This document shows positions 8,104-64,000 of a stretch of 64,000 bases of DNA, piece by piece. The stretch's first letter is position 1; each line of letters starts with the position of its first letter. The notes under the pieces were generated by a model, which was not told the origin of the DNA, did no database searches, and saw only the letters and a program-made list of their open reading frames with translations. Origin of the DNA: Raillietiella orientalis (Eukaryota). A program made the position numbers and the translations under genes. The DNA lies in the NCBI GenBank assembly GCA_036172245.1, contig JAYWIR010000055.1, positions 434,001-498,000 of the forward strand. The letters are read 5' to 3'.

Positions 8104-8134
<31 letters not shown>

Positions 8135-24717: not shown

Positions 24718-24799
24718 GGGTCAGCTCCTGCCGGACGGCGATGGCGTCAACCTCCTGGACGAAGAACTTTTTCCGTATTCAGGCTGTTGTTTGTTTTTT

Positions 24800-32972: not shown

Positions 32973-32998
32973 CCACCACCACCACCACCACCACCACC
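32973..32998. repeat. (CCA)n microsatellite
   Basis: ccaccaccaccaccaccaccaccacc. Confidence 0.9.
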
Positions 32999-43784: not shown

Positions 43785-44874
43785 TTGGCTGGGACGCATA
43801 AGGAAGAAGGGCGCACGCACAGGGGCAGCATCTCTCAACCCTCAAGACAGGGTGACGAAGGCAGGGGAAGGGGGATGGAAGGGGGTGCGAATCGCGGCTT
43901 CGGCAACTCCCTCGAGACAGAACGCCAGGCCGCACGCAAGCGCAACAGCACGGGACGATGGTCACCGACTCTTCCGACCCACCCCCCGGCGCCGACCGAC
44001 GCGCGCCGCCACACCAACCACGAAGACGCGCGTCCTCCCCACGCACCTCACCGCAAGCTACCCTCCTGCCCCCCTCCCCCTTCCGCGACAGCCACCTCGG
44101 ACAGTCCAGCGCACTTGCGCGCCGGACGCTTCCGCCGCCCATCCTGGCGATCCGTCCCAGGCGATCGCCTGACCCGACCCGCCCAGCCAGCACGCACGTC
44201 CACTTTGCCCGCTTCCGGCTAGCAGGGACGAGAGTGGGCTTCCCACCGTCTGCTAAGGGTGGGGGACAACGGCGATGCCGTTCGGCTTTGCTGCTTCCCT
44301 CTGCGCACCCGTCCGAGACCCCCGCAGGAGCGGCCGTAACGGGGGCGCACTGAGCCCGTTGAGGAGGCCGCTCCGGCTTGTCCCCGCACAGCCCACGCCC
44401 CGGCAGCCGCGGCCCCGCTTGCCAAGCGATCGTCGGCACGCGACGGGCCCCAAAGCCCGGACACCAACGCGCACCTTTGCTCCCTGGCTGCCGACGCCGC
44501 CCGAGCGCCAACGACGCACCAGCACTTCGCGCTTCCGCAGGCTCGCCAACCGACCGACCCGCCGCCGCCCGGCTCCGACGTGGCAGAGACGCGGACGACG
44601 CCGCTCCGGAAGGAAGCGCGCACTGCTTTGGGTGGCTGCCGCCGCGAGCGCCCACCCTTCCCGCCTGCTCCCCTTTCCGACGCCCGCCCCTCGCAACGCT
44701 CCCTCCCCATCCTCCGTTCGCCCGGAATCCGCCCGCCCCCTCCTCGGGAGGGGTCGCGCCGCGCCCGTCGGGATCGACCGGAATGGCGCCGCTCGGCCAG
44801 CCAGCTGCCTTGGGTTGCACCGGGAAGGCAGGGGAACCCGGGAAGACGAGGCGAGGCGGGGCAGCTGCCGGCGC
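43785..44874. repeat. Interspersed 1.09-kb very GC-rich repeat, copy 2
   Basis: Near-identical to 23628-24717, same orientation, different flanks. Confidence 0.95.
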
Positions 44875-46899: not shown

Positions 46900-47900
46900 A
46901 TATTTCCAGATTTGAGTATTCGAGAGCTCTAAATTTCGCATGGATTTTCGGTAGAAAGCTGTTGGAGAAAGCCGTGATTTTGCTGACACCTTGGAGGACC
47001 CGGCAGCCTTTCGAAAACGACCGTGATGATGTAAGATTGAAAGCGCGCATTCTTATTGGTTAATGAGAATGACGTAAGGACCGAAGTCGCGGCGCTCCGC
47101 ACGCATCCACGCAAGGGACACTTTGTAAGTGTGTCAAATGAGTGCGGGTCGGTTGCGGCAAAACCGAAATTGCTCTCCGCTGCTTTCGATGAAAGGTCGC
47201 AGCGCCTTCGGCCGTCGGGCAGGCGTCCAGAAAATCCCTCCCCTGGATCGTCGAGGGAGAGCTAGCGACGTGCGGGAAGCACTCGTGCTTCGCCCGGTGC
47301 CAACGCACGGGGTGCCTCGTGGCCAATGGTTTCTACGCATTCGAGATGTCAGGAGGATCGAAGGAAGACAACGCAGCCCGAGGCGGCGGCAGCAGCAAAC
47401 CACGGCTGCTCCCGGAAGCGCAACGCGGAAAAGTCGAATCCGCCAACGAAGACACCGTCCAGCTTCCGGAGGCTGCTTCGTCCCAGCTCTTCGCTCCCGG
47501 CACTCCGCAGGTGCTCGGGGCGAAAGAGTCCACACGCCAATGGGGCACTGAATCCGCTCTCGTCCGTGTGCGCAAGCAATTCCTCCACTTCCTGGGATCG
47601 GCATGTTTCGTCCGTGGTCGGCGTGGCCGACTATGCGTTTCTCCCTGTCTAGCATTTTTCGACGATCCCACCGTCAGCAAATCCTGGTACAGCGCTGGGG
47701 GAAGATGTCCCAGGAGGAAGGAATACATCGCGGGTGCAGAGTGTGCAGGAACTACCAAGGAGAGAGCTGCAAGGGTGAAGACGGACTCGTGCGGGCCTTG
47801 GGTGGCAGACAAAAAGCAGCCGAACCCCGCGGGACGAGCTCGTAGGAAGACGTAGTGGGGACGCTGAGGTGGCTCCACCAAGCGCTGGCGAGAGACAATT
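46900..47900 (+). mobile_element. RTE-like LINE RT relic
   Basis: DFADTLED (DFADD), SGGSKEDNAAR (DGGSxxDIxAR), QVLGAKESTRQWGTES and WDRHVSSVVGVADY, in RTE ORF order. Confidence 0.45.
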
Positions 47901-48099
47901 GCCCAAGAAGCCGAACAGCAGCAGAATCTCTGAGGGTTCTCGCCTATCCGGCACAGAGCAGGAAGGAGGCGACTCAGGACGGACCCGGGGAAGAGTCCGG
48001 AAGGTTAAAAGAGGATCCCGGAATGGGGGCAAAGAAGGCTCCGGAAGAGTCTTGAAAATCGCCCTCGGACGTGCTGGCAAATTTCAACTTCCCTTCCTC

Positions 48100-48480
48100 T
48101 CAAGCAACCGTCTCTTCAGGGCCCGGCTTGCTGGGTCTGGCGGGAGGCTCCGCGGGCAAGAACTAGATGGAGCTGGCGGCTCCAAAAGCACCGCGGGTTC
48201 GAATCGTCGTCGACTGCAGCGCGCTTCGACTTGGCCGCTGGTTTCTGCTCGTCAGAAGTAGGGGGAGGGGGTCGCGGGGCCGTCCCACTCCGAGCGAGAT
48301 CGTGTGGCTACGATCGCAGGAGGATCGAGGAAAGATGACGAAGCAGCCCTCAACGCTTGCTGTTCCTGTGACCCGGGAAGAATCACCAGGAACGGCAAGA
48401 GGGGACGACATCCCACCTCGAGGCATCCGTAAAGTCGAAGACACCCCAGACGGACGCAAAAGTCTCCTTCGAGACGGAAT
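48100..48480 (+). mobile_element. RTE-like LINE 3' relic (sister of 53480-53900)
   Basis: gggtcgcggggccgtcccactccgagcgagatcgtgtggctacgatcgca (~48268-48318) is nearly identical to ~53702-53751. Confidence 0.45.
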
Positions 48481-50799
48481 GAAGGAGATCGGCATTAACG
48501 TTGCGTCCAACAGAAAAACGAAAGTGACCGGTTGATCCGTGTCTGTGTGTTTTAAAGGTTTTAAAGGCCCCACGATTTCGGGGGATCTGCGGACAGCGGA
48601 GTGATCCGAGGGGCGCGGTCCGGCGTTTGGACCGGACGTTCCTGGAAACGAAAAAAGGGGAACAGTTCTTTCGCACGGGAATGTCTGCCACCAAGCGGAA
48701 GCAGGCGGAAGCAGCGGACCGGTTCCTCTTGGCGGCGGCTCAGTTCACGCCTCCGAGAAGACGGCGGAGGCAGGAGAAGAGGGCCCGCCCGCACTTTCTT
48801 TCGGACGGCGAATTCGAAGCCGAGAACGAAAAGAAGGGGGAAAAGTCGAAGGCGCGGCTCGCCTCCAAGGAAACGGCCTGACGGGAAGCCAAGGAGACTG
48901 CGTGAGCGCGCGCGCGCGGGGGGGCCGAGCCTTCGGAGGAAAATCACTTTCTACTTTCATCGGGGATTCACTTATTGGGCCCAGGTGGGCAATGACATTT
49001 CCTCGTCCGAGGCGCGCTGCGTCCTCTGTGCACCTTTCCAGCCCGCTTTCCTTTTTCGTGTTTACTTTTAGCGTCTTTCAAAGTGGGGTGGTGCGCCCGT
49101 CGCCGCGCCCGGTCCGGGGGGAGGTGAAAGGTGCCGTCGCCGCTTCCGGGAGTGCCATCCCGTCAAAGGCTGACAGGCCGGGAAACTTCACTTATCGCAC
49201 GCACTCCCTCTCGCATCCCGGTGGGATTGAGAAGGGGCAAAAGGATGTTTGCGAATTCGGAAACGTGCGAGCATTACATTTCAGCACGCATCGCACGGAA
49301 GCATTAGGATGTAACGAGGGCAAAGCTCTGTGCCGAGAGGAAGGAACGGCATTTGTCTTCCTTTATGAGGTCCTCAGGCAGGACTCTGCCCTCAACAGGG
49401 AAACGGGAGTGCTGGGATTCGACTTTGTATCACGGAAACAAAACAGAAAGAGAGTTAATTAATTTGCGGTCCCTACAGAGACACACACATGCTTGCCAGA
49501 CTTTCTTCGACAAGTGCTAAAAATACTTGCAGCCGTTTCGAAAAACCAAGGTCATTTCTTCCAGGAAGAGGAGATTCCCTCCGAGGAAGCACAGAGCAGC
49601 ACGAAAAGATGCACACGTCCTCTCGTGCCTGCTCCTCGCCTCCATCCCTTATTTGCCTCAGCGTGCACTGAGCCACCGTAGCCGCCGCCATGCTGATTGC
49701 GATCGCTCGATTGGCGTCCCACGTGTGCACGGAAGGGCAAACACCATCTTTCGAAACGTGTCCGTTCACGTCTGCGTGCAGGCCTTGGGGTTTCGAATCT
49801 TCTTCGTCGCCGCATATTATGAGGGGGGAGGGGAAGCTGGGAACCGGGGGCGACGGCGACGCCGCCCGAGCTCTTGGATTGTCCAATCCAAGACTCACCG
49901 AAGGCTGCTCCCTCCATAACGAAAGGAAAGGCCAGGATTTGCCTGACAGGATCGCCGCCAGTGTCCACGCTTGGCTCCGAGTCAAGCACGCGCCAACAGC
50001 GAGTTTTCATTTTCCCCGGAAGCCGACGGTTAACACGTGTCGACGGTTTCCAAGCGCGACGTCACCGTCATCATCAAAACCGCGAGAGTGAGGCAATCCG
50101 CACGTGGAGGTTCCGGGGGAGGGAGGGACGTAGGATTTCCGGTTGCCTCGTGCCACGTGTGCAAAACGTTGCCTCGCGTCCCGTGCCACCGTCGGGAGCG
50201 AACCACTCCGCCCGCTAACGGGAACCCGTGGGACCACGCTGTGGTTTTCATGGAGAACCGGGTGGAGGAGACCGGAAGGAAGACGCCAGCCGGGGCTGAG
50301 AGCGCCCCTCCGCCTCGGACGGCGAGTGTTTCGAGACGCGGTGTTTAAACAGCAAGCCGTCCCGGCAGGTCGGGACCAGGAGCGAAGGACACCTCCTGCA
50401 GGATATTTTTAGGTCTTCTCGCGCGCGGAAACTTCGCCGCGGCGGCGACGACGAGGCGTTCGGACTCGTCGTCTCCGCCTGGATCCGATACGTTCACTTC
50501 CAGCGGGGCTTGAACCTCCCAGCCTCCCCCGTGGCTCGCGAGTGCACGTGGGGGGAGGACTCACGAAGGAGAGTTCGAAAAGTCTCCAGGGTGACGACGT
50601 GGCGTTCCAAGTTCAAGAAGGAAAGGGAAAGAAAGAACGCTGAGGTTCCCCTTGGAAGAGGGGGAGCTTCCAGAAAAGCGCTTCGGAGCTTTTCGGGGCG
50701 CGCGGACGCGCCCTTGTAAACCACGCAGTCCATTTGTCAAGGGATCAGAGGTCTCGACCGAGGCTCTGCTTACCACTTCCCTTTTCCTTCCCCCCCACC

Positions 50800-51650
50800 C
50801 CCACCCGCCGATTACAAGGGAGCGCCACAGAAAAATCAAAGTGTCATCTTCGGCGGGAAGTTGCAATCGCGCATCCAAATCGGCAAAGAGTTCCATTTGG
50901 AGGATGGACCTCTGGACCGCTCGGGAAAGAGAAGGACTCTGCATTGCATCCGGTCCTTTGACAGCGGCCTCCCCCTTGCTGTGGTCCTTCTTTCTTCACA
51001 CTCTGTACAAGTCATCATCAGTCCACCGGCTCCATGGGACGCGATGGAGGAGGTCCCCCCGAGCGGAGAAGGCGGCTCCATTTGCACGACCGGAGGGGAA
51101 TTCCGAAGAGCTTGACTCCTGGAAGAACCCCGGAGGGTCACCTTCCAATTCCGGCCACTCGACGGGGGCATCCGGTGGTGCCTGGCTGCAGAGAACCGTT
51201 CGCACGTGGGCGGGGACTCAGCCAAGCGCAGAACAGGGACGACGTTTCCTGTACGCGCGCAAGAAAACTGCACGCTCTGGGAGATCCTGGAGGATCCCGT
51301 GAAGAGTGCGTGGGCAGGAGCAACAACCTCCGTTGCCGCAGCGCTGCCCACTCCAAGGGAACACATGGACAGCAGCCTTACGGCTAGATGGGAGGTTAGT
51401 GTGGAAAGTCTCCGGAAGGAGAAAAGGACTGGGCGAGTGGAAAACGGGCCAGCTCACCGACGCTGCGACCCCGAATGCCCCGCCTCGAGGACTTTTGTGC
51501 TGGGGAGTGCTACTGGGTATTCCGGAGGAAGACCTGCAGCGGCTCTCGGTGCTCATGAACACCCACACTCTCTCTTTGATGTGGCAGGAGTCGGCGTTCA
51601 TACTGATGCTCTGGGACCTCTCGAGCAACGCCTGCTGGCATCATTGAACA
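50800..51650 (+). mobile_element. RTE-like LINE relic
   Basis: EDGPLDRSGKRR (DGSLDREVxRR), YKSSSVHRLHG (YxAxVxPxLLYG) and RVENG...PNAPPRG. Confidence 0.35.
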
Positions 51651-52224
51651 CGGGGGGGAGAGGGGGACTCAAGCTGTGCAACGTGCGAGGGGCAGGAATT
51701 CCTGTCCCACATCTCCTAGTTCACTGTGTTGCCCTCCGACTCCTTCGGGGGCGGTTTGTCGCAACCCTTGGAACCCCGGCGGCAACGCCAGAGACGTTTG
51801 AAAGCGACTCTTCCTCGGCCACGCCCTCACACCGGCCGCATTCCCAGCAGCACTTTGCTGCCCACAAGGCGGGACCGTAGCTGCGTGAAGCAACGCCAAA
51901 GGAGGCCACAACGACAGGGACGCCGGCTACTTTGCCGTCCTCTTCATGAGAACAGCGTCAAGATGGCCCTATCTGGGAGTTTTGGAACAGGAACTTGCCG
52001 GCATTCTTACAAGGATGCAGAGGACCTCCCAGCGCACAGTGATCCCTTCCGGAATCCCTTCCCATTTTTTTGACTGTATCTCTTTGTTTTATTCATTTCC
52101 GTTTGTTTGTCTCTCCTTACCCTGTGCTGCCGAGGCGAACCCCGCTGGCTTGTGTGCCAGATCTCGGCAGGTTTCCTCTCGTATTCATAAGTAACATGAG
52201 AGGATCGAAAGTCTTGCCACAGAC

Positions 52225-52450
52225 GTGTGTGTTTATTTTTTACAAATGAACGCTCTGGGTGTCAACCAGTGTCGCACCCGAGTACAGGACAACCAGCGCC
52301 ATCTTGCCAAGGGATTTCAAACTCGCAACGCAACCGTTTCTCGGTGTCGATCCTCCCCCGGGTGGGATTCGAACCCGCCAACGCTCGGTGCCACGCGCGA
52401 AGACAGCCGCACGGCCGACAGCGCGGGAGATACCACTGGCACGGGGAGCG
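52225..52450 (-). mobile_element. tRNA-derived SINE
   Basis: Minus strand shows an A-box-like GTGCCAGTGG, an intact B-box GGGTTCGAATCCCACC, an unrelated body and an A-rich/(CA)n tail (aaaaaataaacacacac). Confidence 0.6.
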
Positions 52451-53479
52451 CGCACTTCCGTCCCACCGCCATGGGTTGGATTGATGGCAGGCGGACAGAA
52501 GATCACAGAAGCTGAAGAGGATGCTCGCCTCTTGCCTACTTGACAGAGCGCGCTCTGACCTACAGCAGCATCCGAAAGAGCTGGAGGAGGACCCACCCGG
52601 TTAGTGTGAAGCGATGGGGTCCCCACAAGTAAGGTCTGGGTTGTGGGGGAGGATTGACGTCGGGTCTGGGTCAGCTAGATTTTCGTACCTCCCTGTCTTC
52701 CGCCGGCGCTCGCGTTGCCAAGATACCCATGCCGCCAGGAACAATCCCGGGGACCCCTCCCCCTGCAGGAGGGGAAACTCCCGTGCTCTCCCTGCCTGCT
52801 GCTTCCACTCGGACATTCACCAGGCGGAGGGTCCGTCCCTCTGCCTGGCGGCGCCTGCAGCCTACCGCGGGGAACGCCTTCGCTTTCTGCACTTCGAAAG
52901 GATTGATGGCGACGATGATTTGGGCCTCAGGACGATTGGGGCGGGATCATTCCCCCGCCCCCGCACTCGCACGCCATCGAGTGAGGCACGTCCACTCTTC
53001 AGCTTCGCGAATTAAGCAGGGCCGCCGCTCTTGCGATGGGATGCGTTCTGGCGGACCCGCGGCATGGCGCGATCGGATGCGCCATCGCCACAGCGAAAAA
53101 CAGCTCAAGAGGGCGGCGAGGGAAACTCCCACTTGCTCCCTAACGACTCTGCACGGAGATGTGCAGATCCCACTCCTCTGCGACCCTCCAGCGGTCACGG
53201 ATCACGCCCGCTCCAAGAAAGCGCGTCTCCAATTGGCTGATGCTCCCGGTCGTCGGTCACTTGCGCTCTCTCGCTAAGCACGGAGGGTGCCCCGCCGACG
53301 AGATGATCCCTGTCCGTGAAGCGTGTGGGAGACGGGGCAGACAGAGGTATCCTCGGCCTGAAGGCGTCCCTATCCTGCCCTCCCTCCTTCGCCCATCGAA
53401 GCGAAACTATGCACGCAAGTCCTAGCAACCAGGATGGGGGCCGCACACGCAGACCGTTCTGTAAGGCGCCACACAAGAT

Positions 53480-53900
53480 GGAAGTTAACGTGAGCAGGGC
53501 GTGGTCACTAACGGGTAGGGGATCCGCCTGCCGCTGCGGACGCACCGGGCACGCGCAGGGCAACGCTGAGGCGGAGACAGCCCCGACGTATCGCTCTCTT
53601 CAGGTGCAGACGAACAGACAGCTTCGCGGTCCGCCCCTCTTCCTGCTGCGAGCCGGCTGGACCGGGGAGTCAAGCTCGGGAACCTGGAAGCGGAAGGGTG
53701 AGGGTCGCGGGGCCGTCCCACTCAGAGCAAGATCGTGTCGCTACGATCGCATGCGAAAGGCTGAGAAGCGACTGGAGGATGGCAATGGAGGCGCAGCGGA
53801 AGAGCGGAACGGACGTCTGCGCAGAGTGAGGGGCCACCCCAAGACTAAGCTCGCGATGCACGATATTCATGGGGACGGCCAGACAGGCCGAACCGGGCTG
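53480..53900 (+). mobile_element. RTE-like LINE 3' relic
   Basis: LRARSCRYDRMRKAEKRL...RRVRGHPKTKL (cf. RxRRLRWYGHVRR...RRxRGRPKTRW). Confidence 0.5.
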
Positions 53901-55955
53901 CAGGACCAGGCCTGCATCGCCTGGATGTTCCGCGGGAGTTGCACACACAGAGAAGCCGAAAACACTCTTCTTCTGCCCGCATTGAGAGTCTCGCGGGACG
54001 CGCGTGGCGTGAAGGATGCGGCGTCGTGGGTTTCCAATCCCCTGGAAAGATGGCGCGGCAACAACTCCAGGCTTCAGGTGTGCATTGGGGAGATGCGCTC
54101 GCCAATGCACCCCCGTTGACTAGAGCGAGGAGTGGTCTCTTCGGGCTCCCCAGCACCCGTCTCACGCAGCTCGCCTTGAGTGAGTGAGACGGGACGACTC
54201 ACAGACCGCGAGCGAACTCGGCCGGCGACCGAGGGACAGTCAGCGCGGAGTCCCCCCGTTGTGACGTGACTTTGTCCCTGGAAAGACCAGCGTTTGCCCC
54301 TGGAAAAAGGGGAGCGTGGCTGCTCCGTCTTGGAGGGCACAACCGCAGGCTCTTTCCTCTTCCGCCGGAACTTCTCTGGACTCGAAAGGGATGCTGACCT
54401 AACCGTGGAAAGGCAGCTGGTCACAACCTCTGCCTCGTTCCCATGCCATCCTCGAGCAAGAGCAGGGGCCGGAAGCAAAGCAAGAGAGGTGGGTCTTCCG
54501 CGAGGAGGCGCCGAGTTCTCGGAGCTCTAACACGGTAGGGCAAGTTCGAAGGACCTGGTCAAGTCGGCGAGCATCGGCGGGAGAGCCGGAAAGAAATTTC
54601 CAGACTTTTCTGGAGTCCGAACGGGGGAAGGGGGGAAGCATGGAAGAGAGCGAAAACTCCGCCCTGAGAGGATGCTGACTTCGAAGGAGAACAGCAGCGT
54701 GCAAGGGATGGCTGTCCATTTTATGGCGAGCGGGCCTTTCGAGGCCGGCGTGTCGAGATCCCATCTTCTCTCCTTCCCCTTGGCACTATCGATGAGTGGT
54801 GGCTTTTCTTTCTTCTTTCCCTTGGGAGCGGCAGCATCCCTGGAGCACTTGCCCTTCTCTCTCTCGTCGACCCCTGCAACAGATCTCCTCCCGCGTCTTC
54901 TAAAAGTCGGCCTCTCTCGCTTCGCCACGACGAATGAGCAGCTGCGCGCGAGGGGGCCACTGGAGTGGCCAGGAGCGGATGGAAAGCTGACCAGGAGTAG
55001 ACCGAGAGGTTTGGCTGGAATGGGGCACACGAAGGCTTCCGCGGGGCTGCCCTGTCCTGGCTCCGCTGCTCTCAAAGGCCGCCCGGAGTAGGCGAGAAGG
55101 TTCTACCGCGGGATGTGAACCCGCGGCCTCGTGCTCGGACAGTGTGGGCTTTGCGTGCCTATCCGAGCGTCGCGCGGACCTGGGGGTTGATCCCGGTTCT
55201 CGGCCCTGCTCGGCTGCGTAGGTTCACACTGGGTCGGTCGGTCGCAGGGATTGCAGGCACTATGACAAGACCAGCCAGGGGGGAAGAAAGGGTCGGCGAC
55301 CGAGGAATGCCCTCGCTGCTATGAGGGGGAAACTTCCTGGAGGTCCCTGCAAGCAGCGCTCTTTCCAGTGTGTGGAAGGTGTCCCTCCACGCGCCTCCTC
55401 CGCTACTCCACCTAGCGCGCGAAGACTCGAGAAGGAGTAGTGGGGCGAAGAGGAATCTCGACTTGCCCCTTGGCGTGAGCTTTTTTGACGATCGCTGGCG
55501 ACACCCCCCGAGCCCGCGGTGCCTCCGGGCTTGCTCCTATGCATCGCGAAGTGCCTCTCCTCTTGTCTGCTCCCGTCCGTAGGGAAGGCTCTCCGGACAG
55601 CATGGGGCTTGCCTCACCTGTGACGGCGCCGCGAGCCCTACCTTCCGCCGCATCCCGGCGAGGTGGCGAGCCACCTCGGATAGATAGAGGATCCCCCTGC
55701 CGCGGAGGGAGCAGACGAAGGACACTCCCTATCTTCGCAGGTGCGCCAACTTGCCTGGTGGCGGGCGGCTGCTGCTCGGAATGTCCATTCATAGGCGAGG
55801 AGAGCTCCAACCTCCCCCGGGACTCCTCGGCTCCTGTGGCCTGCCGGCTCCAGAGCTCCTCCTGTGACGAGCAAGAGGGAGGGGCCTCGGGCTCCAACCC
55901 CAGGTCTGACGGAAGTGCACCCACGCACCCCTGGGACGACCCAGACCGCTCGAGG

Positions 55956-56141
55956 ACTGGCAACCACCCCCCATTATATACCTTATCGCATTAATAATCG
56001 TTCTAATGTTATGCTTCCTTGGTCGTCCCATTACCCCTTGCGCAACACGTGGCTCCAAAAGTGCCCATTCCTTATCACTTTACCTCCTATTTTTTTACCT
56101 CATTGTACTCTCTTTTCCTCATTTCTTTTCAAGAGAGGTTC
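55956..56141 (-). mobile_element. IS5-family insertion sequence, left end and truncated transposase N-terminus
   Basis: SDKEWALLEPRVAQGVMGRPRKHNIRTIINAIRYIMGGGCQ matches the IS5 N-terminal pattern (SDxEWxxxEP...GRPR...INAIxYxxRxGCQW). Truncated at the expected W, with in-frame stops upstream. Putative IR start GAACCTCTCTTGAAAAG follows TAA. Confidence 0.8.
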
Positions 56142-56347
56142 TTAAACGACTTATAAGCGCGTTTGAGCTTCTATAGGTAAAAAGCCTTTTATTTAAATTC
56201 TATACAGACATACGGTGCACACAGTACGAAAAATGGAACATCAGACTTCAAATGCGCTGATTTTTTTTGTCGTTTGATCTGCACAGACCGAAGACAAATC
56301 ATAGCTTCGATACTATGATGATGGGGTTGAAAGAATTTGTCAAGTGG
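56142..56347. repeat. Wolbachia-type intergenic repeat element
   Basis: ttataagcgcgtttgagctt...agacatacggtgcac...tctgcacaga...tttgtcaagt resembles a dispersed non-coding repeat I recall from Wolbachia genomes. Recollection only; needs BLASTN. Confidence 0.55.
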
Positions 56348-56596
56348 TATTTGTGATATTTGATAACTCCTCCTTTGATGGTATTTTTCTCATACTTTAT
56401 CATACCATTACATTCCGGGGCCGTGCGAATTTCTGTATGATTTGTTAATGCAGTTGACAATCAAGAAATATTGTACACAATTTCTATATCCATATTTAGG
56501 AACTGAGCATAATCTCGCCAAATAAATGTGTCTTGTAGGCGAGTTAGTATACGGTTCATGTATTGTGTTATTGGTATAATATATCTTGGGTATCCT

Positions 56597-56674
56597 ATGG
56601 AAGGTGTTAGTGCGTCAGGTGGTGTTAGTTATCGAGTTGTTATAAGCGAAGAAACTGTGGAAAGAATGGGATGA
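56597..56674 (+). pseudogene. Truncated 5' end of a bacterial hypothetical gene ([25 protein letters not shown])
   Basis: ATG preceded by a TATAAT box (56575-56580). The frame stops just before the junction with the dnaJ fragment. VSYRVVISE resembles a remembered Wolbachia hypothetical protein N-terminus. Confidence 0.4.
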
Positions 56675-56681
56675 TTTGAAT

Positions 56682-57111
56682 TTTGCATTTGTAACGTAAT
56701 GTAAAGGCGCTCGCATTCCTTCAAATGCGTCTTCGAAGTCAATTTCGAGATCATAACGCAAGTCCGCCCCGGGCACTCCCCTCGGTGTGCTTTCCATCTA
56801 CTCGATCCCCCGAATCCTCCGCCAAAAAAGTCATTCAATACGTCAGTAAAATCTCCCGCAGCCTGGCTAAAATCAAATCCACCAAAACCACCACCTCCAC
56901 GTCCGTAACCATCACAACCTGCCTTTTTCTCGGCATCAGACGGAACTTCGTACGCAGCCGTTGCTTCTTTGAATTTTTCCTCTGCTTCTCTATCACCGGG
57001 ATTTCTATCTGCATGATACTTTAACGCTAATTTCTTATATGCTTTTTTTATCTCATCACCACGAGCGTTTCTGCCTCCTTCCAGCAGTTCGTAGCACTCT
57101 TTTGTGCTCAT
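56682..57111 (-). pseudogene. dnaJ: Bacterial dnaJ pseudogene fragment (J-domain, G/F-rich linker, start of C-terminal domain), Wolbachia-like
   Basis: [56 protein letters not shown]...DFFGGGFGG, frameshift at ~56800, then [33 protein letters not shown]. The essential HPD is mutated to HAD; truncated before the zinc finger; no introns. Confidence 0.9.
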
Positions 57112-60100
57112 ATACAATCGTTCGGTATTTAACCTTTAAAATAGGTATTTCACAATTTCAAGTGCGGCCTCTGTTTTCTGTGTGGACTAAAAACCCAGTC
57201 AGCCCGGAAGAAGTGCCTGTCCGTCCCCAAGAAGGGAGGCAGTCACCCCCAGTCGAAAATGACCCCGACCACCACTACCGCCCGCACTCCCTTCCTCAGG
57301 AAAGCCAAGAGTGGGGGGCGCATCCCGGCGCTAACAGATGGGGAGCCACCTCCCCACGGAAGCCGAGAGCAGCGTGCCCGTGCATCGCCTTCTCCCATCA
57401 CCCAACTCAGAGGGAGACCCTCATGGGTGATCCCCCGTGACGGCCCTTTCGGTTCCCTCCTCTCTGGACGAGACCGCCGGCGAAAAAAGCCAAGGCGCTG
57501 CTGGGTGGATCTCCTCCCCCCTCCCCCCCGAAGTAGCAGCGTAGAAGACAAAAAGGCGTGAATCTCTGGGGAGCCTTCGAGACCACCCCAAAGGGAGGCA
57601 TCGGACCGACCCCCACCAGCCAACGGGTTCATGGGAGCACCCGGAAAAAAACCTTCCTGCTCCGAAGAGCGCGTAACCACAGGAACGGGAGCTCCCCTGC
57701 CCCACCACCCCTGATGGTCCGAAGAGCGACACTCCCGTCCCTATCGGAGGACCAGGTTCCTCCTCCAGGTCCAGCTCCAGGAGAAGACAGAAGTCGGAAA
57801 TCACTTCATCTTGGACGTGACAGATGCCCTCGCCGCGATCAAAGTCGACGGTTGGTCAGCGCGGAAGGGGCAATAGGGAAGGAATGTCTGGGTGGACACA
57901 ACCCAGGAGCCCGGGGCGCCCCAAAGGCGGGAACGAAGGAACCGCGCTCCTGCGGTCCTAGTCTGCGATCCCTCAGTCCCATTCGCTCGGGAGATCCCAT
58001 GAAGTGTCCCGCAGGTCGTCGGGACGCGCAGCCCGAAGGCGCGAATGCCTGTCACGGGCTAGCTGACAGTAGGTCAGCGTTTCCAGAGGAGGGTCGGGGG
58101 CACGGCGAACACTCGGGAGGCTCCCTGTCCCGAGGGGGCATGCCGTAACACGGTGGCTGCCTTTCCGGGAAGAGATCCCCAGCAGCGTGCGGCTGGAGCG
58201 AGGTTTCCAATGGCGACCGCTTTGCGATCGTCGAGGACTCCGGGGATGGGCGAGTTGGACGGGGGAGCCGGGGCGCACGTCTGGCGGCGGCGCGTAGCAA
58301 CGGAACCCGGCGGTCTTTGCTGGAGGAGAAGAAGAGGGTCCTTGGAGCTCCAGGGATCCGACGACCACGGGAGAGCGCCCGAACAGCCCGGATCGAAAAG
58401 CAGGGAGGTGAGTTGGAATGCTGGGACGGAGCAGCTCCGGAGCGCAGGGAAGGCCCGAGAAGGGAGCTCCTGAGGTGTCCCTCTCGGTGCGGCCCCGCGA
58501 CCTGTCTTCCATCTTCGGTGGGAGGTGGTCGTCCAGCGCGCCACGCGCTTCGGGCTGGTGGCTGCCCCGTCCGAAAAGACGAGATGGCGCTCGCGCGGCG
58601 GCTTCGTGGGCTGAGCCCGAGGCAGGGACAGCCGCCTCGGTTGCGAGTGACCTCGCCGGCTGCGCCCCGCATGCCCTCGGAGAAAGCAGTCGCCCACGGG
58701 CCTTTGGTTGAAGGGGCAGGGCCAGCACGAAGCGGGTGGACGCCGTCCTTGGAGCGGAGGCGATTGCCCCTTTCCGCCGCAGCGGGCAGGGCGAGGCGGA
58801 GTGGGGCCGCCCTCCGGCAAGCGTCGACACCGGCACCTTCGCTGCAGAAGAGGGAGAGCTCGTCCGGCGCGGTTCCTCCGGTGGACCCTAGACGGGACAA
58901 AAGTCGCGCGTTTGCTTCTCGGTCGCCAGGGACAACTCCTGCCCTCTCCCTCACTCTTCCACCCGCTGGATGTAGTCCCAGGAGGAAATCCGAAAGAGGT
59001 CCTGTGTCGCTCGAGGAGGAAGCGGGCGGACAGAGCGTCGCGGTTAGGGGAGCAGAGTGGACGAGAGGGTAGCTAGCTCACTTCCTCTTCCTCGTAGTGG
59101 AGCCGGCGCTCCAGAGGGAGCCAGGCTTGGACCCTCGGAGCCCTTCTGAGAACCCAAGGAGGTGTGGGGAGAACAGTCTGTGGCGACCTTCCTCGCAATC
59201 GCGAAAAGCCACGGTCGACTGGGGAGATGCAGTCTGCTCGGTCCGCACAATACGTAATCTTCAGGTCATGGAGGGCGAAGGATAAACGTGACGCTGCGAC
59301 GCGGCATCATTCATCTTCTCACCTCCCGGTAAAAGAAAGTCAGCACTTCAGCTGAGGAATTGTCCGCTCCCTTCTGGAGTGGCGGGACCAAGTCATCTCC
59401 CGGTCCAACGAACTGACTGCACAGGGGTGGTTGTTGCTGCCCACCTGGCGGCAGTGTCCCCTTCTGCAGCACCTTCCGGGAAGTCCCATCGGCTACACGC
59501 GACCCAGTAGAAGCAGAACACCCTCCGAATAGAAGGTTCCCCCTTCCTCTTTCAGGACGATGGCTGCTTCCAGAGGAGGCGCCCCCATCCTCTCTGTCTT
59601 GGCCAGCGGACAGCCAGATTTTTTCGAGCGGTACCCGGCGGGAGGCGCACGAACCTGTCCGCGGGCACCGGGTCTCAAGAATTGGCGGTGGGTCGTTCAT
59701 TCGATGCTCTGACAGCCTCGGTCGCCGAGTCGCAGAGTACCCCGCCCGACGTTTGCCCCGAGGGCAGATGAGGTGGGACCGCAGGCCGAGCGCGCGGGAA
59801 AAGGGCTGCCTCCCTTTCGCACTGCCGACCTTCGAAGAAGGAAGAAGAGGAGGCACGCGTTGCGCGGCGGCGCCTACGTCGTCGACCGGACGTGCTTTCG
59901 TGCAAATTACTCTTCCTTCGATCCCCGGGGCACAACCGACGAATTCGGAGAAGCAGCGTTGGGGGCCGCTGCACCCCCCGCCCCAGTTCCCTCTGCGTTC
60001 TCGGGCGCGGCTTCCTCAGGCGTGTCTCCCTGGCACAGGCAGGGCGGTTCGCGTACTCGTTCGGAACACCTACACGCGAGTCCCCAGCGGCGCTTCGAGT

Positions 60101-60129
60101 CAGACAAGGATCAAGGAACAGCACTTTAC

Positions 60130-60247
60130 CACATCCCTGTCAGGTACTTGTAGCTGACGTATCCTAGTAGCGTGACCGTGACCAGGACCAGTGCCAGCCA
60201 GGTCCACATGGACTCGCTGATGCTGCAGCAGCCGTCGAGGTGATCAT
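60130..60247 (-). CDS. Exon encoding a transmembrane/signal-anchor helix (MWTWLALVLVTVTLLGYVSYKYLTGM), probably an N-terminal exon of the PTP gene
   Basis: ctag acceptor at 60247, TG|gtaaag donor at 60130, ATG at 60209. Hydrophobic helix followed by YKY. Resembles my recollection of membrane-anchored N-termini of insect Ptp36E isoforms (MWxxxVxxxSxxGYxxYxFL). Confidence 0.6.
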
Positions 60248-63200
60248 CTAGAATGCCAACCACTGAGTTGAAGGACAACGTGGCGCGGATCTCCAACTCC
60301 AAAGCCAGCCCACGGGTCCGGGACGCCACCGAGCAGCGCGAAAATTCGCCGGAAGATGTCCCGCCACCGAGTTTCCGAGAGATGCGAGGAATGGGAGCAG
60401 CTCCCAGGGAGGTACCATTCCTTGGAGTAAGAGGACCAAGCGGTCCAGACTCCGTTTCGTTCCAGGAAGGGCAACCGAAATGCGCGCAGGTATTTGACCT
60501 CAACAGGTCCATCTCGGTAAGAGGGACGTGACGCGGAGCAGGGGCACGGTCTGCCTGGCAGCCTAGCAGACAGTCGCGCTCCCGAGGGGAAGAAACAGGG
60601 GAGAAGAGAAGAGGGGATGGAGGGGGGGGGGGGAGGGGAGGGAAGCAGACGACAGGGGTTCCTTCTCCCCTGCTTCCTGGAACGAATACGCTAATCCCCG
60701 GGCTCGAAGCAATGAGCACGTTCACGGAGGCCGGACCTCGCTTGGCACGCCAGCGGGGCGGGCAGGGCCGCAGGAGAGGGGCACGACGATGGCCGGACGA
60801 AGGGGGCAGCGAGGCAGTTGCGTCACGCGCCCCAGGCATCGCTCCGCAATCAGGGAAAAATCGTGCGGGATCCCCCCTGCGCCAACTTGAGAAACGGTCG
60901 GTCTCCACGGAACAACCTCGCCCTGCAGCTCGGCCAGCAGGCTTCTCACCACACGAGGTTTGAGGGGGCAGCGCATGGCCCGCCCAGCCTATGGTGGGAG
61001 GAAGGGGAAGGCTGGAGGAGCCGGAAGGAGAACACGGGGGGGGGGGGAAGAGGGTGCCAGGAGACAGATCTGCGCCTGTATAAACACCTGGCGTTTGCAC
61101 CGGTCCGTCGTCCCTGCTTGGCGCCGTAAGCAGCACGTGTGACCTTGCGCCATATTGTAGTGTAGCGTTCTTCCCAGTGAAACCTTGGCTCGTCCTAGGG
61201 TCCCCTTCTTCCCCTTCCCATGTTGCTTGGAAGGGCGAGGGGCACCGAGCACGGCGCGAGCCACTGCCCGAGACGGGAATATAAAGTTCAGCACTCACAA
61301 GTCGGGTCTTCCAGGTCCTCCAACGAAGCCCTCCTCCGCGGGACCCGCCCGCGCAACGGACAGTGGCGGATCCTCTTCCCGGAGGAGAGGCTGTCTCGAG
61401 TTCTGGGAGGCCTCCGCTCCAGCGCAGCTTCCAGGAGGAGTGACCTGGGTGTCGTCGTCACCCCCTTCCATGCGCCGCCGCAGGAAGGCTCCCCTGCTTG
61501 CCGCGGGAGGCGAATCGGGCTGGCAGATGGCGGTCCCCCTACCCACCCCCGGAGCTGCCAGATTGCGCGGGCGTTTCTTCCCCCCACCCCTTTGAGAGGG
61601 AATGCGCGCGCAGCCGCCCCACCTGCTGTTCCGTTGGAGCCCGCGACGGGCAGCTGGAGGCGATCCCGCTGGAGCTGGGCAGCGGCGACGTCCTTCCTCC
61701 GAGCGTGGGGCCCTTCGGGCTTGGCGATGTCGGCGTTCCGGCCCTTCGCCCTCCTGCTGTGCTTCTTCCTGTGGCCCATGCGGCCGCCCCTAGGAGGGCA
61801 CACGAGAAGGGGATAACGACGCTGGGTCGAGGACCTCCGGGTCGAGGACTAGCGTCCGCCCCCACACATCGCAAGTCCCTCGCACCAACCCAGACTTACC
61901 CTCCGCTGGTTCTGCCACGTGTCCTTGCCCCATCCACCCACCCCTGTATCCGGGGGTCGGAGGGCCCTCCCATCGGGGGCGGCTGACCCAGCGGGGCCCT
62001 CCCACTCCGATCCCAAGCCGCACCCCGAGCGCTGGCAGTCCGGCTGGCCCCCTCGACCCCGGACTTACGGTGGGACGCAGCTGCTGGTGCCGCCGCCGCC
62101 GCCGCCGCACCCTGGCGCCTTTGCGCCACCCATCCCGCTCCGGGAAGCCACCGCGCCCACGTTACCCCGCGGTTCCCAGCGGTGCGGGGCGTGTCCGACC
62201 GCTGCGGAGCGCCGGCGTCGACTCGACCCCCCCCCCTTCCGGTGTGGAGCAGCGACGCTCTCCCTCCGCCCACCTTCCGCCCGTAGGAAGAGCGGGGCCG
62301 CCGCCGCATGCATCCCGGAGGAACGCAGACTCCCCGAAAGGGGGATGAAGAGGAAGGAAGCGGGGATCCTCCCACGCGCTCCGCCGCCTCCGCTCGGGAC
62401 TTCCGCTTCCAGCAGGACTCGCGGGCGCCGGGCGCGAGCGGAGGGGGGGATGGGCAAAGAGAAGGTTGCCTGCACGGGGAAGACGAAAAAGAGACCACGC
62501 GCGCTCCCCCTCTCCCCCTCCGACCGTCGCCGGAAGACCACCCCTGGGCGCGAATCTCACAGCGGTGGCGGCCGGCACCGCCCCGCCTCGGAGCGGTGAC
62601 GTCACACGCAGTGCTGCTCCCCCGCAGCCGCCGTCGACAGCGCCTGCATCCGCCAACGCGGTGGAAGACGGGCGCCTGGCCGCCGCCCGCCTTCCACTGC
62701 GCGCCTGCTGGGAACGCGCCGACTCCCCTTGCAACCCACGGAGAGAAGAATGGGCGCTCCCACCAGCTCTCTTCGGGCAGCCAGCGGAGCAGTGCAGGCC
62801 CTCGAATGTCCAGCCCCCATCCCCACATGATACCCCTCGTTCCCTTTTTTTTCATTTCGACAGAGTCCACGTTCGCAGCTTCTGCATTCGCGAGCTCCTC
62901 TCAGAGCGAGTCGTCCTGGAAACGCCCCTCTCACGGCACGGGAACCCGAACCGTGCTTCTTCCCTTCCTCCTCCTCCTCCCTCTTTCTTTCCTCCTCTCT
63001 CTCCTGGCCGTTGGGTTCCGAAAGTGCAGGTGGAACAGCCGCACGTGACGTGGCGTGAGAGCCGGGTCGGTCCACCCCGGAAGGCCCTGCCTCCACGGGC
63101 GGAAAGTCGGACGACGAATCGGGTCAGCGATGCACCCCACAGTGGCAACGCGCCCATCTGGGGCGGGCCACAGAGTCGCTTTCCCCGCTCTTCCGCTCCC

Positions 63201-64000
63201 CCACAGAGGAAATTCAGCTCTTCGCCCCGAGGGCGTTTTCCGCAATGGGAAAGTCGAGTTCTCCCTCGCGAGAGAGTGCTCGCAGCTTCTTCCATGGAGC
63301 GCATCGTCAAGCGGGCGGCATCCCCCCCCCTCCCCTTCCGCCCTCCCCTTCCCAACTACACGAGCGGACCGGAGAGGCCTCGGTTGCCATGGAGCTGCGC
63401 CGATGGCCCAAAGTTGAGCAAGCTGACGACGTCGGCCAGCGTTGCTGCCAGCACGCGGGTGACCTTGAAAAGGGTTGACAGCATGGAGAGCATCAGCGGC
63501 AGCCCGCGCCCATCCATTGGTTCTCACGAGCCCGTGAGGGAAGGGGTGATGGCTGAAGAACGGACGGAAGAGCAGCTGTCCACCTCTTGCGGGGAGGGGG
63601 AGGGGAGGGCCTGAAACCGAAGCACCACCGTATCCCGGCAACAGAATGCGAGCATTGCTGAACGACGGAAAAGGAAAGCGGCGCACAGAAACGACCGCGT
63701 CCATCGAGGTCAGCTGAGTGCGAATCAACCGGAGAGGTCCTCTCCGACCCACCAATCAGCAGCGGCGCCACCTGCACAAAGAGGTCCTCCGCAGGCGGGC
63801 ACGGAACGTCCCTGCCGTCCCCGCATCCCAGCGAACGGGAACGGCGGCAGAACCCACCCGGAACACGTTCGTTCGGTCCGCCTCTCCTCTGCTCGTCCCT
63901 TTTTTCACCTTTCTCCCCTTTCCGGTCCCCTTCGCTCTTTCGGTTTCGGCGGCGGCCAACACCCTCCCCCCCCCCCCCTCCCTTTTCGCCGTTCCCCGGG

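Follow-up and report, generated by a model that had tools for sequence, protein, structure and literature searches.

The window, by which we mean the whole stretch of 64,000 nucleotides of Raillietiella orientalis DNA analysed here, contains a 515-base fragment of Wolbachia DNA at positions 56680-57194. The fragment lies on the minus strand and consists of 83 bases from upstream of dnaJ followed by the first ~144 codons of the gene. It is part of a patchwork of Wolbachia pieces, about 1.05 kb in total, within host DNA of 62-66% GC. The features of this island and of its two flanks are listed in Table 1.

Table 1. Features of the Wolbachia-derived island and of the host DNA on both sides (positions in the window).
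Feature	Position	Strand	Remarks
Left host flank	54000-56059		GC 0.623, CpG observed/expected 0.84; no Wolbachia match
AT-rich 80 bases, left edge of the island	56060-56139		GC 0.36, no CpG; no Wolbachia match in 5 genomes
Copy of a ~210-base repeat, highly multi-copy in Wolbachia	56140-56370		at least 40 matches in each of 5/5 genomes, 70-82% identity
Short multi-copy Wolbachia repeat, ~60 bases	56363-56422		matches of 78-100% identity, most 81-91% and full-length, many copies
Start of another Wolbachia gene (first ~47 codons) with its upstream region (piece c)	56428-56667	+	joined to the broken end of dnaJ; the two genes converge on opposite strands
Wolbachia dnaJ pseudogene fragment	56680-57111	-	codons 1 to ~144 of ~370; J-domain and Gly/Phe-rich region retained
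Wolbachia intergenic DNA upstream of dnaJ	57112-57194	-	83 bases, small deletions; matches of 78-88% in 5/5 genomes
Right host flank	57195-59200		GC 0.656, CpG observed/expected 0.85; no Wolbachia match past 57194

The Wolbachia origin of the fragment is clear. By blastn and alignment, positions 7-521 of the reverse-complemented segment 56600-57200 matched Wolbachia, and matches to the dnaJ fragment were found in 58 of 60 Wolbachia genomes, with a highest DNA identity of 86%. Thirty of the 58 were aligned; the identity is 81-86% to nine of them and 76-78% to the 21 others. Among 5.8 billion database sequences the best proteins are Wolbachia DnaJ, 81% and 76% identical. In a phylogenetic tree the insert is placed beside the clade of the nine genomes (support 79 for this clade, 96 for the remaining genomes), on a branch of 0.135 substitutions per site.

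The gene is no longer functional. Translation of the minus strand of 56680-57111 gives a DnaJ J-domain (Pfam PF00226, E=6.9e-19) and then a Gly/Phe-rich stretch, which is followed by a frameshift. The deletion responsible, near 56790, is seen as a gap of 10 columns in the alignment, and it splits the coding sequence over two ORF frames. Homology to Wolbachia stops at 56680, before the zinc-finger domain. PF00226 is the only Pfam domain of the fragment, and the zinc-finger (PF00684) and C-terminal (PF01556) domains are absent; the full-length relatives, 369-375 amino acids long, contain all three. Further, the HPD motif reads HAD in the insert, the result of a C>G change at 57012, while HPD is found in all five aligned relatives. 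With a broken HPD motif and without PF00684 and PF01556, the fragment does not qualify as a functional type I DnaJ/Hsp40 chaperone.

The changes private to the dnaJ insert fall almost evenly on the three codon positions (11/15/14), and 10 of them are synonymous and 30 non-synonymous. The corresponding ratio in living Wolbachia is 112:126, which differs significantly from that of the insert (p=0.0098). The even spread over codon positions and the 10 to 30 ratio indicate that the private changes arose without selection, after the death of the gene. Given its origin, its loss of function and its neutral evolution, the fragment is most probably a nuclear Wolbachia transfer (nuwt) pseudogene. As in other known nuwts, a broken and non-functional piece of Wolbachia would here lie in a chromosome of the host, next to the other Wolbachia shards to which it is joined.

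Of these other shards, piece c has a single DNA match above background in the 60 Wolbachia genomes searched (G037:C36:8261-8467, 76% identity over 241 columns). In this relative an ORF of 495 amino acids, with a Pfam MavL domain (E=2e-105), starts at the matched place. A 331-base query spanning 56360-56690 found some match in 35 of the 60 genomes, mostly within the part occupied by the ~60-base repeat. The AT-rich stretch at the left edge may be a further Wolbachia shard or host DNA. In general the composition changes in a step: GC is 0.36-0.45 within the island but 0.62-0.66 on either side of it. On the right, homology to Wolbachia ends at about 57194 and GC-rich host DNA begins there.

The rest of the window was searched against five Wolbachia genomes. 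No match was found in 1-20000 or in 20001-40000 (0/5 genomes each), only the repeat at 56140-56370 matched in 40001-56700, and only the first 95 bases matched in 57100-64000. Hence there is no second independent Wolbachia insert within the window. Pfam families were not found in 16 of the 17 long flanking ORFs examined, and the remaining one had a protein-tyrosine-phosphatase match below the cut-off. Weak exons of animal genes are seen elsewhere in the window, for instance a synaptogyrin-like exon at 4241-4483. Tandem repeats were not detected, nor were direct or inverted repeats in 50000-64000, and an Rfam scan of 55900-57400 gave no match. Sequencing reads from one low-coverage run, which contained a 0.11 share of the words, yielded a single 261-base contig over 56203-56463 with zero variants; the junctions lie outside its span.

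The host DNA around the island belongs to a domain with 56-66% GC over more than 50 kb. Here the observed/expected ratio is 0.33-0.39 for TpA and 0.88-0.96 for CpG, against 0.66 and 0.58, respectively, in the AT-rich first 6 kb. A CpG ratio near 1 suggests that the GC-rich domain is not methylated in the germline.

Direction of change in the insert

To polarise the changes we used a rule of agreement among relatives, the nine nearest and 21 further Wolbachia genomes, and not a model-based reconstruction. In a relaxed set, where at least eight of the nine nearest relatives agree, 38 changes from A or T to G or C (weak to strong, W>S) are found together with 3 S>W, 7 S>S and 1 W>W, at 301 W and 167 S sites. 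Of these changes six, namely 4 W>S and 2 S>W, seem to have arisen on the stem of the relatives. In a strict set, where all nine nearest and at least 60% of the 21 outgroups agree, the numbers are 28 W>S, 1 S>W, 5 S>S and 1 W>W at 238 W and 105 S sites. Finally, if only columns at least 8 positions from an indel are used, there are 28 W>S, 1 S>W, 6 S<>S and 1 W<>W changes at 243 W and 132 S sites. The rates per site in this last set are 0.115 for W>S and 0.008 for S>W, and over the dnaJ piece the ratio between the two rates is 7-15.

As a control the same count was made on 30 living Wolbachia, where 143 W>S and 128 S>W changes were found. The insert, with 32:1, differs strongly from this (Fisher p=1e-7). 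Together with the rate ratio of 7-15, this shows that the W>S excess is far beyond chance and beyond what an AT-rich start alone would give. The GC of the dnaJ insert was about 37% on arrival and is 44.5% now, while the same segment has 33-38.5% GC in 14 relatives. The equilibrium GC implied by the dnaJ piece is 0.88-0.94, with a lower 95% bound of 0.67-0.76, and is thus no lower than the 0.62-0.66 of the flanks. Equilibrium values of 0.33, 0.50 and 0.62 are all rejected (p=2e-7, 3e-4 and 0.009, respectively).

Not one G:C>A:T transition is seen at the 132 S sites of the dnaJ piece, against six C<>G changes at those same sites. In spontaneous mutation spectra, as known from mutation-accumulation work, C>T is far commoner than C>G. 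The lack of G:C>A:T next to six C<>G therefore points to a bias in fixation or repair over plain mutation. The 6 S<>S against 1 S>W changes at the 132 sites are in line with what biased conversion predicts, namely that changes without an effect on GC are not suppressed. Only one W<>W change is seen in 243 sites, and it should be kept in mind that these numbers are small.

The ~210-base repeat was aligned with 20 copies from Wolbachia. It shows a weaker bias, with 16-21 W>S against 4-10 S>W changes and an implied equilibrium GC of ~0.45-0.6, and its spectrum differs from that of the dnaJ piece (p=0.0016). We assume that this reflects uncertainty over which copy was the source, as well as neutral divergence of the donor prior to the transfer. 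If the two pieces are pooled for every W>S and S>W class, the equilibrium GC is ~0.7-0.8, a value that averages over two pieces that differ. For piece c, where there is a single relative and the changes are unpolarised, the counts are 15 and 6, likewise a weaker bias than in the dnaJ piece. In total, the analysis covers one locus with 36 polarised changes, or 60 if the repeat piece is included.

The first-pass annotation of this locus had compared the insert with a remembered DnaJ consensus and proposed that most replacements at conserved sites are A/T>G/C changes. With real Wolbachia relatives aligned, this dominance is indeed found among the private dnaJ changes (28:1). Nine of the eleven replacements that it gave as examples are private A/T>G/C changes, namely Y>C, V>G, S>R, N>D, K>R, L>P, a further Y>C, H>R and the V>A in NVK. 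For EVT>EAT only the T>C change is safely private, and the starting residue is less certain, since the motif reads EIT in the nearest relatives and EVT in the more distant ones. In the example KKDYY>TKECY the K>T replacement is wrong: all nine nearest relatives read MSTKDYY and so already have the T. The D>E of this motif is a C>G change and not one from A/T to G/C. The premise of the annotation, an AT-ward decay of neutral DNA, cannot be taken as a rule for the GC-rich domains of genomes in which biased conversion is strong. For pseudogenes decay is usually assumed to run towards AT, whereas here it runs towards GC.

Transitions, neighbouring bases and CpG

The bias is confined to transitions. 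When the dnaJ and repeat pieces are pooled, 36 W>S and 2 S>W transitions are found, that is 0.099 and 0.011 per site (p=3e-5). For transversions the numbers are 8 and 4, which correspond to 0.022 per site in both directions (p=1). The per-site ratios are thus 9 and 1, and the contrast between transitions and transversions is significant (p=0.024).

Further, the transitions show a clear dependency on the neighbouring base. Table 2 gives the frequency of T>C for each 3' neighbour, with the two strands collapsed for the dnaJ piece. In the strict set the difference between purine and pyrimidine neighbours has p=5e-6. For the three pieces pooled, T followed by a purine has changed at 41 of 247 sites and T followed by a pyrimidine at 6 of 254 (p=2e-8). 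In living Wolbachia the corresponding counts are 48 of 3538 and 78 of 4140.

Table 2. T>C changes by 3' neighbour (changed/available sites; rates per site in brackets).
Piece	G	A	C	T
dnaJ, strand-collapsed	11/44 (0.25)	10/65 (0.154)	2/44 (0.045)	1/89 (0.011)
dnaJ, strict set	11/40 (0.275)	9/67 (0.134)	1/40 (0.025)	1/88 (0.011)
Repeat piece	3/23	8/35	0/15	1/46
Piece c	2/26	7/54	1/15	1/45
Three pieces pooled	(0.172)	(0.162)	(0.041)	(0.017)

A new CpG was created by 14 of the 36 changes, and 7 of 8 older CpGs have been retained. Sites where a transition creates CpG have changed in 11 of 44 cases, against 13 of 198 elsewhere (p=0.0009). The dinucleotide make-up of the host flanks, poor in TpA and rich in CpG, is consistent with long action of the same A/T>G/C process.

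Mutagenesis by polymerase eta has the motif WA, and it is ruled out here, since A preceded by A is the least-changed context.

The order of the neighbours resembles that of two known glycosylases. According to the parts of PMC10552547 that concern sequence context, TDG acts on G.T mismatches in the order CpG:T >> TpG:T > GpG:T > ApG:T, which equals a 3' neighbour order of G > A > C > T, and MBD4 follows the same order more weakly. The T>C order of the insert matches these enzymes loosely, in rank only and not in magnitude: in the same source TDG has a roughly ninefold preference for a G neighbour, while in the pooled pieces G and A are about equal.

Candidate processes and known systems

We favour, as the probable though by no means certain explanation, that the insert is a nuclear Wolbachia fossil that lies without function in a GC-rich, unmethylated-looking domain of an arthropod-like genome, and that this domain is under strong GC-biased gene conversion of the type known from the honeybee. 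If so, a host process would since the insertion have driven A:T>G:C transitions to fixation at about ten times the per-site rate of G:C>A:T ones, mainly at T with a 3' G or A, and would have left transversions roughly symmetric. Such conversion, specific to transitions and dependent on neighbours as in the honeybee, would turn G.T mismatches in the recombination heteroduplex into G.C, plausibly by way of a G.T-mismatch glycosylase (TDG/MBD4-like base excision repair). We infer that the bias acts on fixation rather than on mutation, that recombination is involved and that a glycosylase is the agent.

The comparison with the honeybee is based on results of Wallberg et al. 2015 (PMC4406589). There, B is 6.47 for transitions and 0.03 for transversions, and it is above 15 where GC exceeds 0.55. 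Both in these results and in the insert A:T>G:C transitions are strongly driven, transversions show little or no bias, and changes that create CpG are preferred. In the honeybee the conversion is strongest in GC-rich DNA, and base excision repair of G.T mismatches is discussed in PMC4406589 as a possible agent. GC-rich, CpG-rich DNA next to genes that are AT-rich and methylation-depleted is also described in that work, as it is seen here. There are differences too. The honeybee evidence in PMC4406589 was obtained with a recombination map and ~3 million SNPs, whose allele-frequency spectra were used, whereas ours comes from fixed substitutions in one dead insert whose starting state is known. 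The GC-rich domain studied here (56-66% GC, more than 50 kb) is richer and longer than those given in PMC4406589, and the full order of four neighbours, G, A, C and T, is present here but does not appear in the honeybee results of PMC4406589 that we could compare.

A bolder form of this explanation is possible, if doubtful: the GC-rich domains may be under construction now by a very strong conversion or repair drive that acts on transitions only (B roughly 4-6 or more), and the neighbour order may be a kinetic fingerprint of a G.T glycosylase.

Rather unlikely, in our view, is a GC-biased mutational or repair process that does without recombination. A mismatch-specific thymine glycosylase would then remove the correct T opposite a damaged or mis-inserted base, which would turn TpG/CpA (and TpA) into CpG/CpA, while C>T would stay rare in the unmethylated domain owing to efficient uracil and thymine glycosylases. 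The neighbour order, in agreement with the kinetics of TDG, and the CpG ratio near 1, with the lack of germline methylation that it suggests, both speak for such a process. Bypass of abasic sites can yield C>G changes, and the relatively frequent C>G of the insert (6 of 132 S sites) could stem from it. However, the process must account for the complete absence of G:C>A:T transitions at the same 132 sites, which replication errors should still produce. It also needs a mutation spectrum with an equilibrium GC near 0.9, and we know of no animal with such a spectrum.

The enrichment of TpG>CpG and CpA>CpG (11/44 vs 13/198) is what Talhaoui et al. 2014 (PMC4041421) propose for mammalian CpG islands, where aberrant repair by thymine glycosylase is described as the cause of a bias from TpG/CpA to CpG. 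On the other hand, in the honeybee mutation is AT-biased and fixation GC-biased, and the transition-specific, CpG-favouring pattern sits in fixation, as far as the analyses given in PMC4406589 go. The systems treated in PMC4041421 and PMC10552547 share with the insert a concentration of T>C at TpG, the 3' rank of G > A > C > T and an unmethylated, CpG-rich setting. They differ in that the data we draw on from these sources are on mammalian enzymes in vitro and on unpolarised human SNP counts, and in that TpA is as active as TpG in the pooled pieces here. The first-pass annotation had offered two possible causes, strong GC-biased gene conversion and an unusual bias in mutation or repair, and had seen in the insert a polarised measure of the one at work. 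This proposal is supported, and the present data do not separate the two mechanisms.

It is very improbable that the donor, a Wolbachia lineage outside our sample and somewhat richer in GC, already carried the derived bases, so that the spectrum would reflect bacterial evolution. The insert is on a long branch outside its nine nearest genomes, and part of this branch was thus spent in a bacterium; further, the K>T replacement is already found in relatives, and the six changes of the relaxed set noted above look like changes on the relatives' side. Against this, the 30 living lineages are balanced (143:128) and show no preference for T followed by a purine, and the GC of the segment is low in 14 relatives, as given above. 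Among the private changes no codon position is favoured, 75% are non-synonymous, and invariant residues of the J-domain have been destroyed, HPD among them. A donor that carries the derived residues, which would have spoken against the first-pass proposal, was not found in the search of 5.8 billion sequences, where the best protein is 81% identical, and no private residue is shared by any of the six aligned relatives.

An artefact is just as improbable, whether it came from misalignment near indels, wrong polarisation, errors of assembly or sequencing, or contamination mis-assembled onto host DNA. Five changes do cluster at the frameshifting deletion (56779-56787), the junctions are outside the independent read contig, and the polarisation is not model-based. 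However, the ratio of 28:1 persists when all columns within 8 of an indel are removed, and it is the same in the strict set, where there is agreement on both sides of the insert's branch. Random error would be neither directional nor neighbour-dependent, and a contaminating live bacterium would show neither a frameshift nor a truncation, nor would it be joined to other shards or have diverged by 14-19%.

Least credible of all is adenosine deamination of RNA or DNA (ADAR-like editing of a transcript that was then retro-copied) or some other strand-specific editing: A>G, with 13 of 36, outnumbers every other single change, but A>G and T>C on the same strand are equal (13 and 11) without strand asymmetry, transversions and C>G changes also occur, and no poly(A) or other retro-copy features are seen. 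ADAR favours U and A as the 5' neighbour and disfavours G; here the 5' neighbours of the A sites that changed rank as C ~ T > G > A, so the fit is poor.

For GC-rich domains of animal genomes it is usually difficult to tell whether they result from the arrival of GC-rich sequences, such as transposons, or from an ongoing bias. With gains of G or C at 28 sites and a loss at one, the insert directly indicates, in polarised form, that an A/T-to-G/C process is active in such a domain. Its spectrum, confined to transitions and ordered by the 3' neighbour, also bears on the long-running question of which repair pathway causes biased gene conversion. If the bolder form of the explanation given above is true, the insert would provide evidence at the level of substitutions that base excision repair, and not mismatch repair, causes it in an animal. 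The Wolbachia inserts of this genome would then be neutral, AT-rich probes with a known starting sequence, with which the drive could be mapped across compartments. In addition, raw divergence would overstate the age of inserts in GC-rich domains several-fold, as the commonest class of change would be sped up about six-fold.

In our searches of the literature for Wolbachia combined with biased gene conversion, no paper among those listed was on the use of such an insert to read a GC-biased process of the host. A related idea is the amelioration of horizontally acquired DNA, which, as reportedly described by Lawrence and Ochman, takes place between bacteria and is driven by mutation bias towards the composition of the recipient. 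As in amelioration, the foreign DNA here drifts to the composition of its new genome from a start that is known from the donor. Unlike in the classic case, the DNA has been received by an animal nucleus, under a drive that is restricted to a GC-rich domain and that probably works on fixation.

The dnaJ fragment and its setting

In a Wolbachia patchwork of about 1.05 kb lies the insert, a piece of dnaJ that encodes a J-domain and then a Gly/Phe-rich stretch, with PF00226 (E=6.9e-19) as its sole Pfam domain. Its reading frame breaks and resumes in a second frame. Among species-representative prokaryote genomes the top two matches are Wolbachia, at 73% and 69% protein identity, and all others are at or below 64%. 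When 5.8 billion proteins are searched the best match is a Wolbachia DnaJ cluster (81% identity) whose source label is a louse symbiont, followed by DnaJ of the Mansonella perstans symbiont (76%); the insert's private residues are absent from all six aligned relatives. At the DNA level 58 of 60 Wolbachia genomes match the insert: seven at 84-86% identity, two at 81-82% and the rest at or below 78%. A maximum-likelihood tree of the insert and 30 Wolbachia loci (31 sequences) attaches the insert between a nine-genome clade (support 79) and the 21 remaining ones (support 96), on a terminal branch of 0.135 substitutions per site.

Features of the window (o/e, observed over expected)
Feature	Position	Strand	Remark
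AT-rich first 6 kb	1-6000		TpA o/e 0.66; CpG o/e 0.58; CpA/TpG o/e 1.30
GC-rich domain	8000-56000		TpA o/e 0.39, CpG o/e about 0.96; GC-rich domain overall: TpA o/e 0.33-0.39; CpG o/e 0.88-0.96; CpA/TpG o/e 0.93-0.97
Probable host exons	3213-3455, 4241-4483, 7376-7573, 16175-17008	-	
AT-rich island	~56060-57194		
AT-rich, CpG-free 80 b	56060-56139		no match to anything
Repeat piece, ~210-base repeat copy	56140-56370		at least 40 scored copies per genome, in five Wolbachia genomes
Short multi-copy Wolbachia repeat	56363-56422		DNA match
Piece c, gene upstream region and first codons	56428-56667	+	DNA match in 1 of 60 Wolbachia genomes
dnaJ homology (blastn, 30 Wolbachia loci)	56680-57194	-	83 b upstream of dnaJ, 432 b coding
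J-domain and Gly/Phe-rich stretch	56629-57117	-	
Resumed second frame	56615-56797	-	

Judged by its sequence, the insert is a dead fragment. The frameshift near 56790 is a 10-column alignment gap, net seven bases against the longest relatives, the upstream part carries small deletions, and the HPD motif of the J-domain reads HAD. The homology stops abruptly at 56680, about codon 144 of about 370, ahead of the zinc-finger domain. At the opposite limit of the homology, upstream of dnaJ at 57194, the adjoining DNA of the Wolbachia relatives (L089-L097) resembles, by the look of the alignment, the 3' part of a tRNA gene, so that the right junction of the insert would fall just outside a putative tRNA gene.

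The broken end of the fragment, at 56680, adjoins piece c, whose only detected full-length relative has 495 aa (locus L147, 1568-3055) and includes a macrodomain effector domain, MavL (Pfam E=2e-105). The ~210-base element terminates in a T run, also has a shorter form of ~163 bases in related Wolbachia genomes, and has no Rfam match. The 80 b that separate the host flank from the leftmost piece identifiable as Wolbachia may be a further shard or filler. Against five Wolbachia genomes, no Wolbachia-like DNA was found in the rest of the 64-kb window, and one public sequencing run covered 261 b of the island (56203-56463) with zero variants and reached neither junction.

The first 6 kb of the window have 34% GC, and beyond about 7 kb the value is 56-70%; the switch from the AT-rich to the GC-rich compartment falls near 6-7 kb, and the island breaks the GC-rich part. 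The CpG and CpA/TpG values of the first 6 kb resemble a methylation scar. One probable host exon is a MARVEL-domain piece (E=4.5e-5, under the Pfam cut-off), and the adjoining ORF is synaptogyrin-like by eye. There are also two protein-tyrosine-phosphatase-like pieces, one with a Pfam E of 5.6e-4, again under the cut-off; the phosphatase gene, if real, spans the AT-rich and the GC-rich compartment.

Direction of substitution

Changes were polarised as private differences, that is, columns where the insert departs from the base on which its relatives agree. Agreement means at least eight of the nine nearest relatives in the relaxed set, and all nine plus at least 60% of 21 outgroups in the strict set; the indel-free set additionally lies at least eight columns away from any indel.

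Polarised differences (W, A/T; S, G/C)
Set	W>S	S>W	S<>S	W<>W	W sites	S sites
dnaJ piece, relaxed	38	3	7	1	301	167
dnaJ piece, strict	28	1	5	1	238	105
dnaJ piece, indel-free	28	1	6	1	243	132
30 living Wolbachia sequences, summed	143	128	11	14		
Repeat piece, columns at least 90% agreed	19	10	2	3		
Repeat piece, unanimous columns	16	4	1	1		
Repeat piece, away from indels	16	5	2	1	119	51

The first-pass annotation had proposed AT-to-GC substitution pressure from a list of amino acid replacements. Alignment of Wolbachia relatives and counting in both directions bears this out, with 28:1 in the strict set, and nine of the eleven listed replacements are private A/T>G/C changes. EVT>EAT is half right, as the nearest relatives read EIT, while K>T is wrong: MSTKDYY already stands in the nine nearest relatives. 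Six relaxed-set differences (four W>S, two S>W) are common to most outgroups and probably arose on the relatives' stem.

The indel-free changes are 13 A>G, 11 T>C, 2 A>C, 2 T>G, 5 C>G, 1 G>C, 1 C>A and 1 A>T, which gives 0.115 per W site vs 0.008 per S site. The implied equilibrium GC is about 0.9, with a lower 95% bound of 0.67-0.76; equilibria of 0.33 (p=2e-7), 0.50 (p=3e-4) and 0.62 (p=0.009) are rejected. At present the segment has 44.5% GC, and 14 relatives have 33-38.5%. The insert was AT-rich on arrival and is moving to GC, indicating an active process in this domain at least.

Counts in living Wolbachia are balanced, so the private-difference method produces no W>S excess by itself; under the same counting rule the insert has 32:1 (Fisher p=1e-7). 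Further, the changes of the insert are spread over codon positions 1/2/3 as 11/15/14, with 10 synonymous and 30 non-synonymous, while living Wolbachia have 71/63/104 and 112:126 (p=0.0098). The even spread and the mostly non-synonymous changes indicate that most arose free of purifying selection, after the death of the gene, which speaks against the derived bases having been present in the donor.

The repeat piece was compared with 20 of the many family copies (L127-L146). Its bias per site is weak or absent, unlike that of the dnaJ piece (p=0.0016). It is trusted less, since its source copy is not known and non-coding repeats are free to change in the donor before transfer; nonetheless it still speaks against a simple uniform 28:1. 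In piece c, compared unpolarised with a single relative, the insert has G/C against A/T at 15 sites and the reverse at 6, and its GC is 0.342 vs 0.295. Both neighbouring pieces show a weaker bias than the dnaJ piece.

Read on the sense strand of dnaJ (56836-57097), five of the six S<>S changes go from C to G, three of these five following T. The class reaches 0.045 per site, equal to many transition classes, which is unusual.

Transitions and the 3' neighbour

The bias is one of transitions. In the pooled dnaJ and repeat pieces, W>S and S>W transitions occur at 0.099 vs 0.011 per site (p=3e-5) and transversions at 0.022 vs 0.022 (p=1); the contrast between the two classes has p=0.024. With this split much of the disagreement between the dnaJ and the repeat piece disappears.

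Transitions (ts), transversions (tv), and T>C changes over sites by the base 3' of T
Piece	W>S ts	S>W ts	W>S tv	S>W tv	3' G	3' A	3' C	3' T
dnaJ	24	0	4	1	11/44	10/65	2/44	1/89
dnaJ, strict set					11/40	9/67	1/40	1/88
Repeat piece	12	2	4	3	3/23	8/35	0/15	1/46
Piece c					2/26	7/54	1/15	1/45
dnaJ + repeat	36	2	8	4				

With strands collapsed, so that each A:T>G:C transition is written T>C, the rate depends on the 3' base. A purine (TpR) exceeds a pyrimidine (TpY) with p=1e-5 in the dnaJ piece and p=5e-6 in its strict set, and counts pooled over the dnaJ piece, the repeat piece and piece c are 41/247 vs 6/254 (p=2e-8); the 5' neighbour has a small effect. Living Wolbachia are without this preference, both in dnaJ (48/3538 vs 78/4140) and in the repeat copies (11/1200 vs 30/1469). 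CpG is created by 14 of 36 changes, and seven of the eight CpGs common to the relatives are kept. A long-acting drive of this kind predicts host GC-rich DNA that is poor in TpA and undepleted in CpG; the dinucleotide values are consistent with this, although widespread TpA depletion keeps it from being a strong test.

Fixation, repair and known systems

On three points biased fixation or biased mismatch repair is preferred to plain mutation bias. In mutation-accumulation spectra G:C pairs normally mutate by C>T far more often than in any other way, yet G:C>A:T transitions number 0 at 132 S sites where six C<>G changes occurred. The other two points are the restriction of the bias to transitions, the class giving G.T mismatches in heteroduplex, and the ranking of the neighbours, G > A > C > T. 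For the glycosylase TDG acting on G.T mismatches, PMC10552547 gives a kmax of 0.067, 0.0073, 0.0016 and 0.00025 per minute with 3' G, A, C and T, and for MBD4 an identical but less steep ranking. The order in the insert is that of TDG, as a rank order only.

The main rival is a recombination-independent route in which glycosylases excise T opposite damaged adenine and turn TpG/CpA into CpG, as proposed for mammalian CpG islands in PMC4041421. It predicts the same neighbour context, but alone it leaves the missing C>T unexplained. With GC-biased gene conversion (gBGC), strengths (B) of 4-6.5 would fix favoured changes at 4-6.5 times the neutral rate and disfavoured ones at 0.07-0.01 of it, which would square 24:0 with ordinary AT-biased mutation input. 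If so, the insert would be several-fold younger than its branch length suggests, as far as these small numbers go. The frequency of S<>S changes, mostly C>G, is unaccounted for by the conversion model.

Nuclear Wolbachia inserts, gBGC and its honeybee variant are already well known. A falcon genome paper reportedly mentions numts and gBGC together. Among the papers matched by full-text searches that combined Wolbachia or numts with gBGC, none dealt with reading a host GC drive, in polarised form, from a Wolbachia insert. For the honeybee, PMC4406589 reports B=6.47 for transitions vs 0.03 for transversions, favour for changes that create CpG, and B above 15 where GC exceeds 0.55, and it considers that base excision repair may be the cause. 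These same three traits were obtained there from allele frequencies, whereas here they come from fixed substitutions in a bacterial fossil. The insert reads as a clean single-locus case of a honeybee-like, transition-specific and neighbour-dependent GC drive, at one locus and from a few dozen changes.
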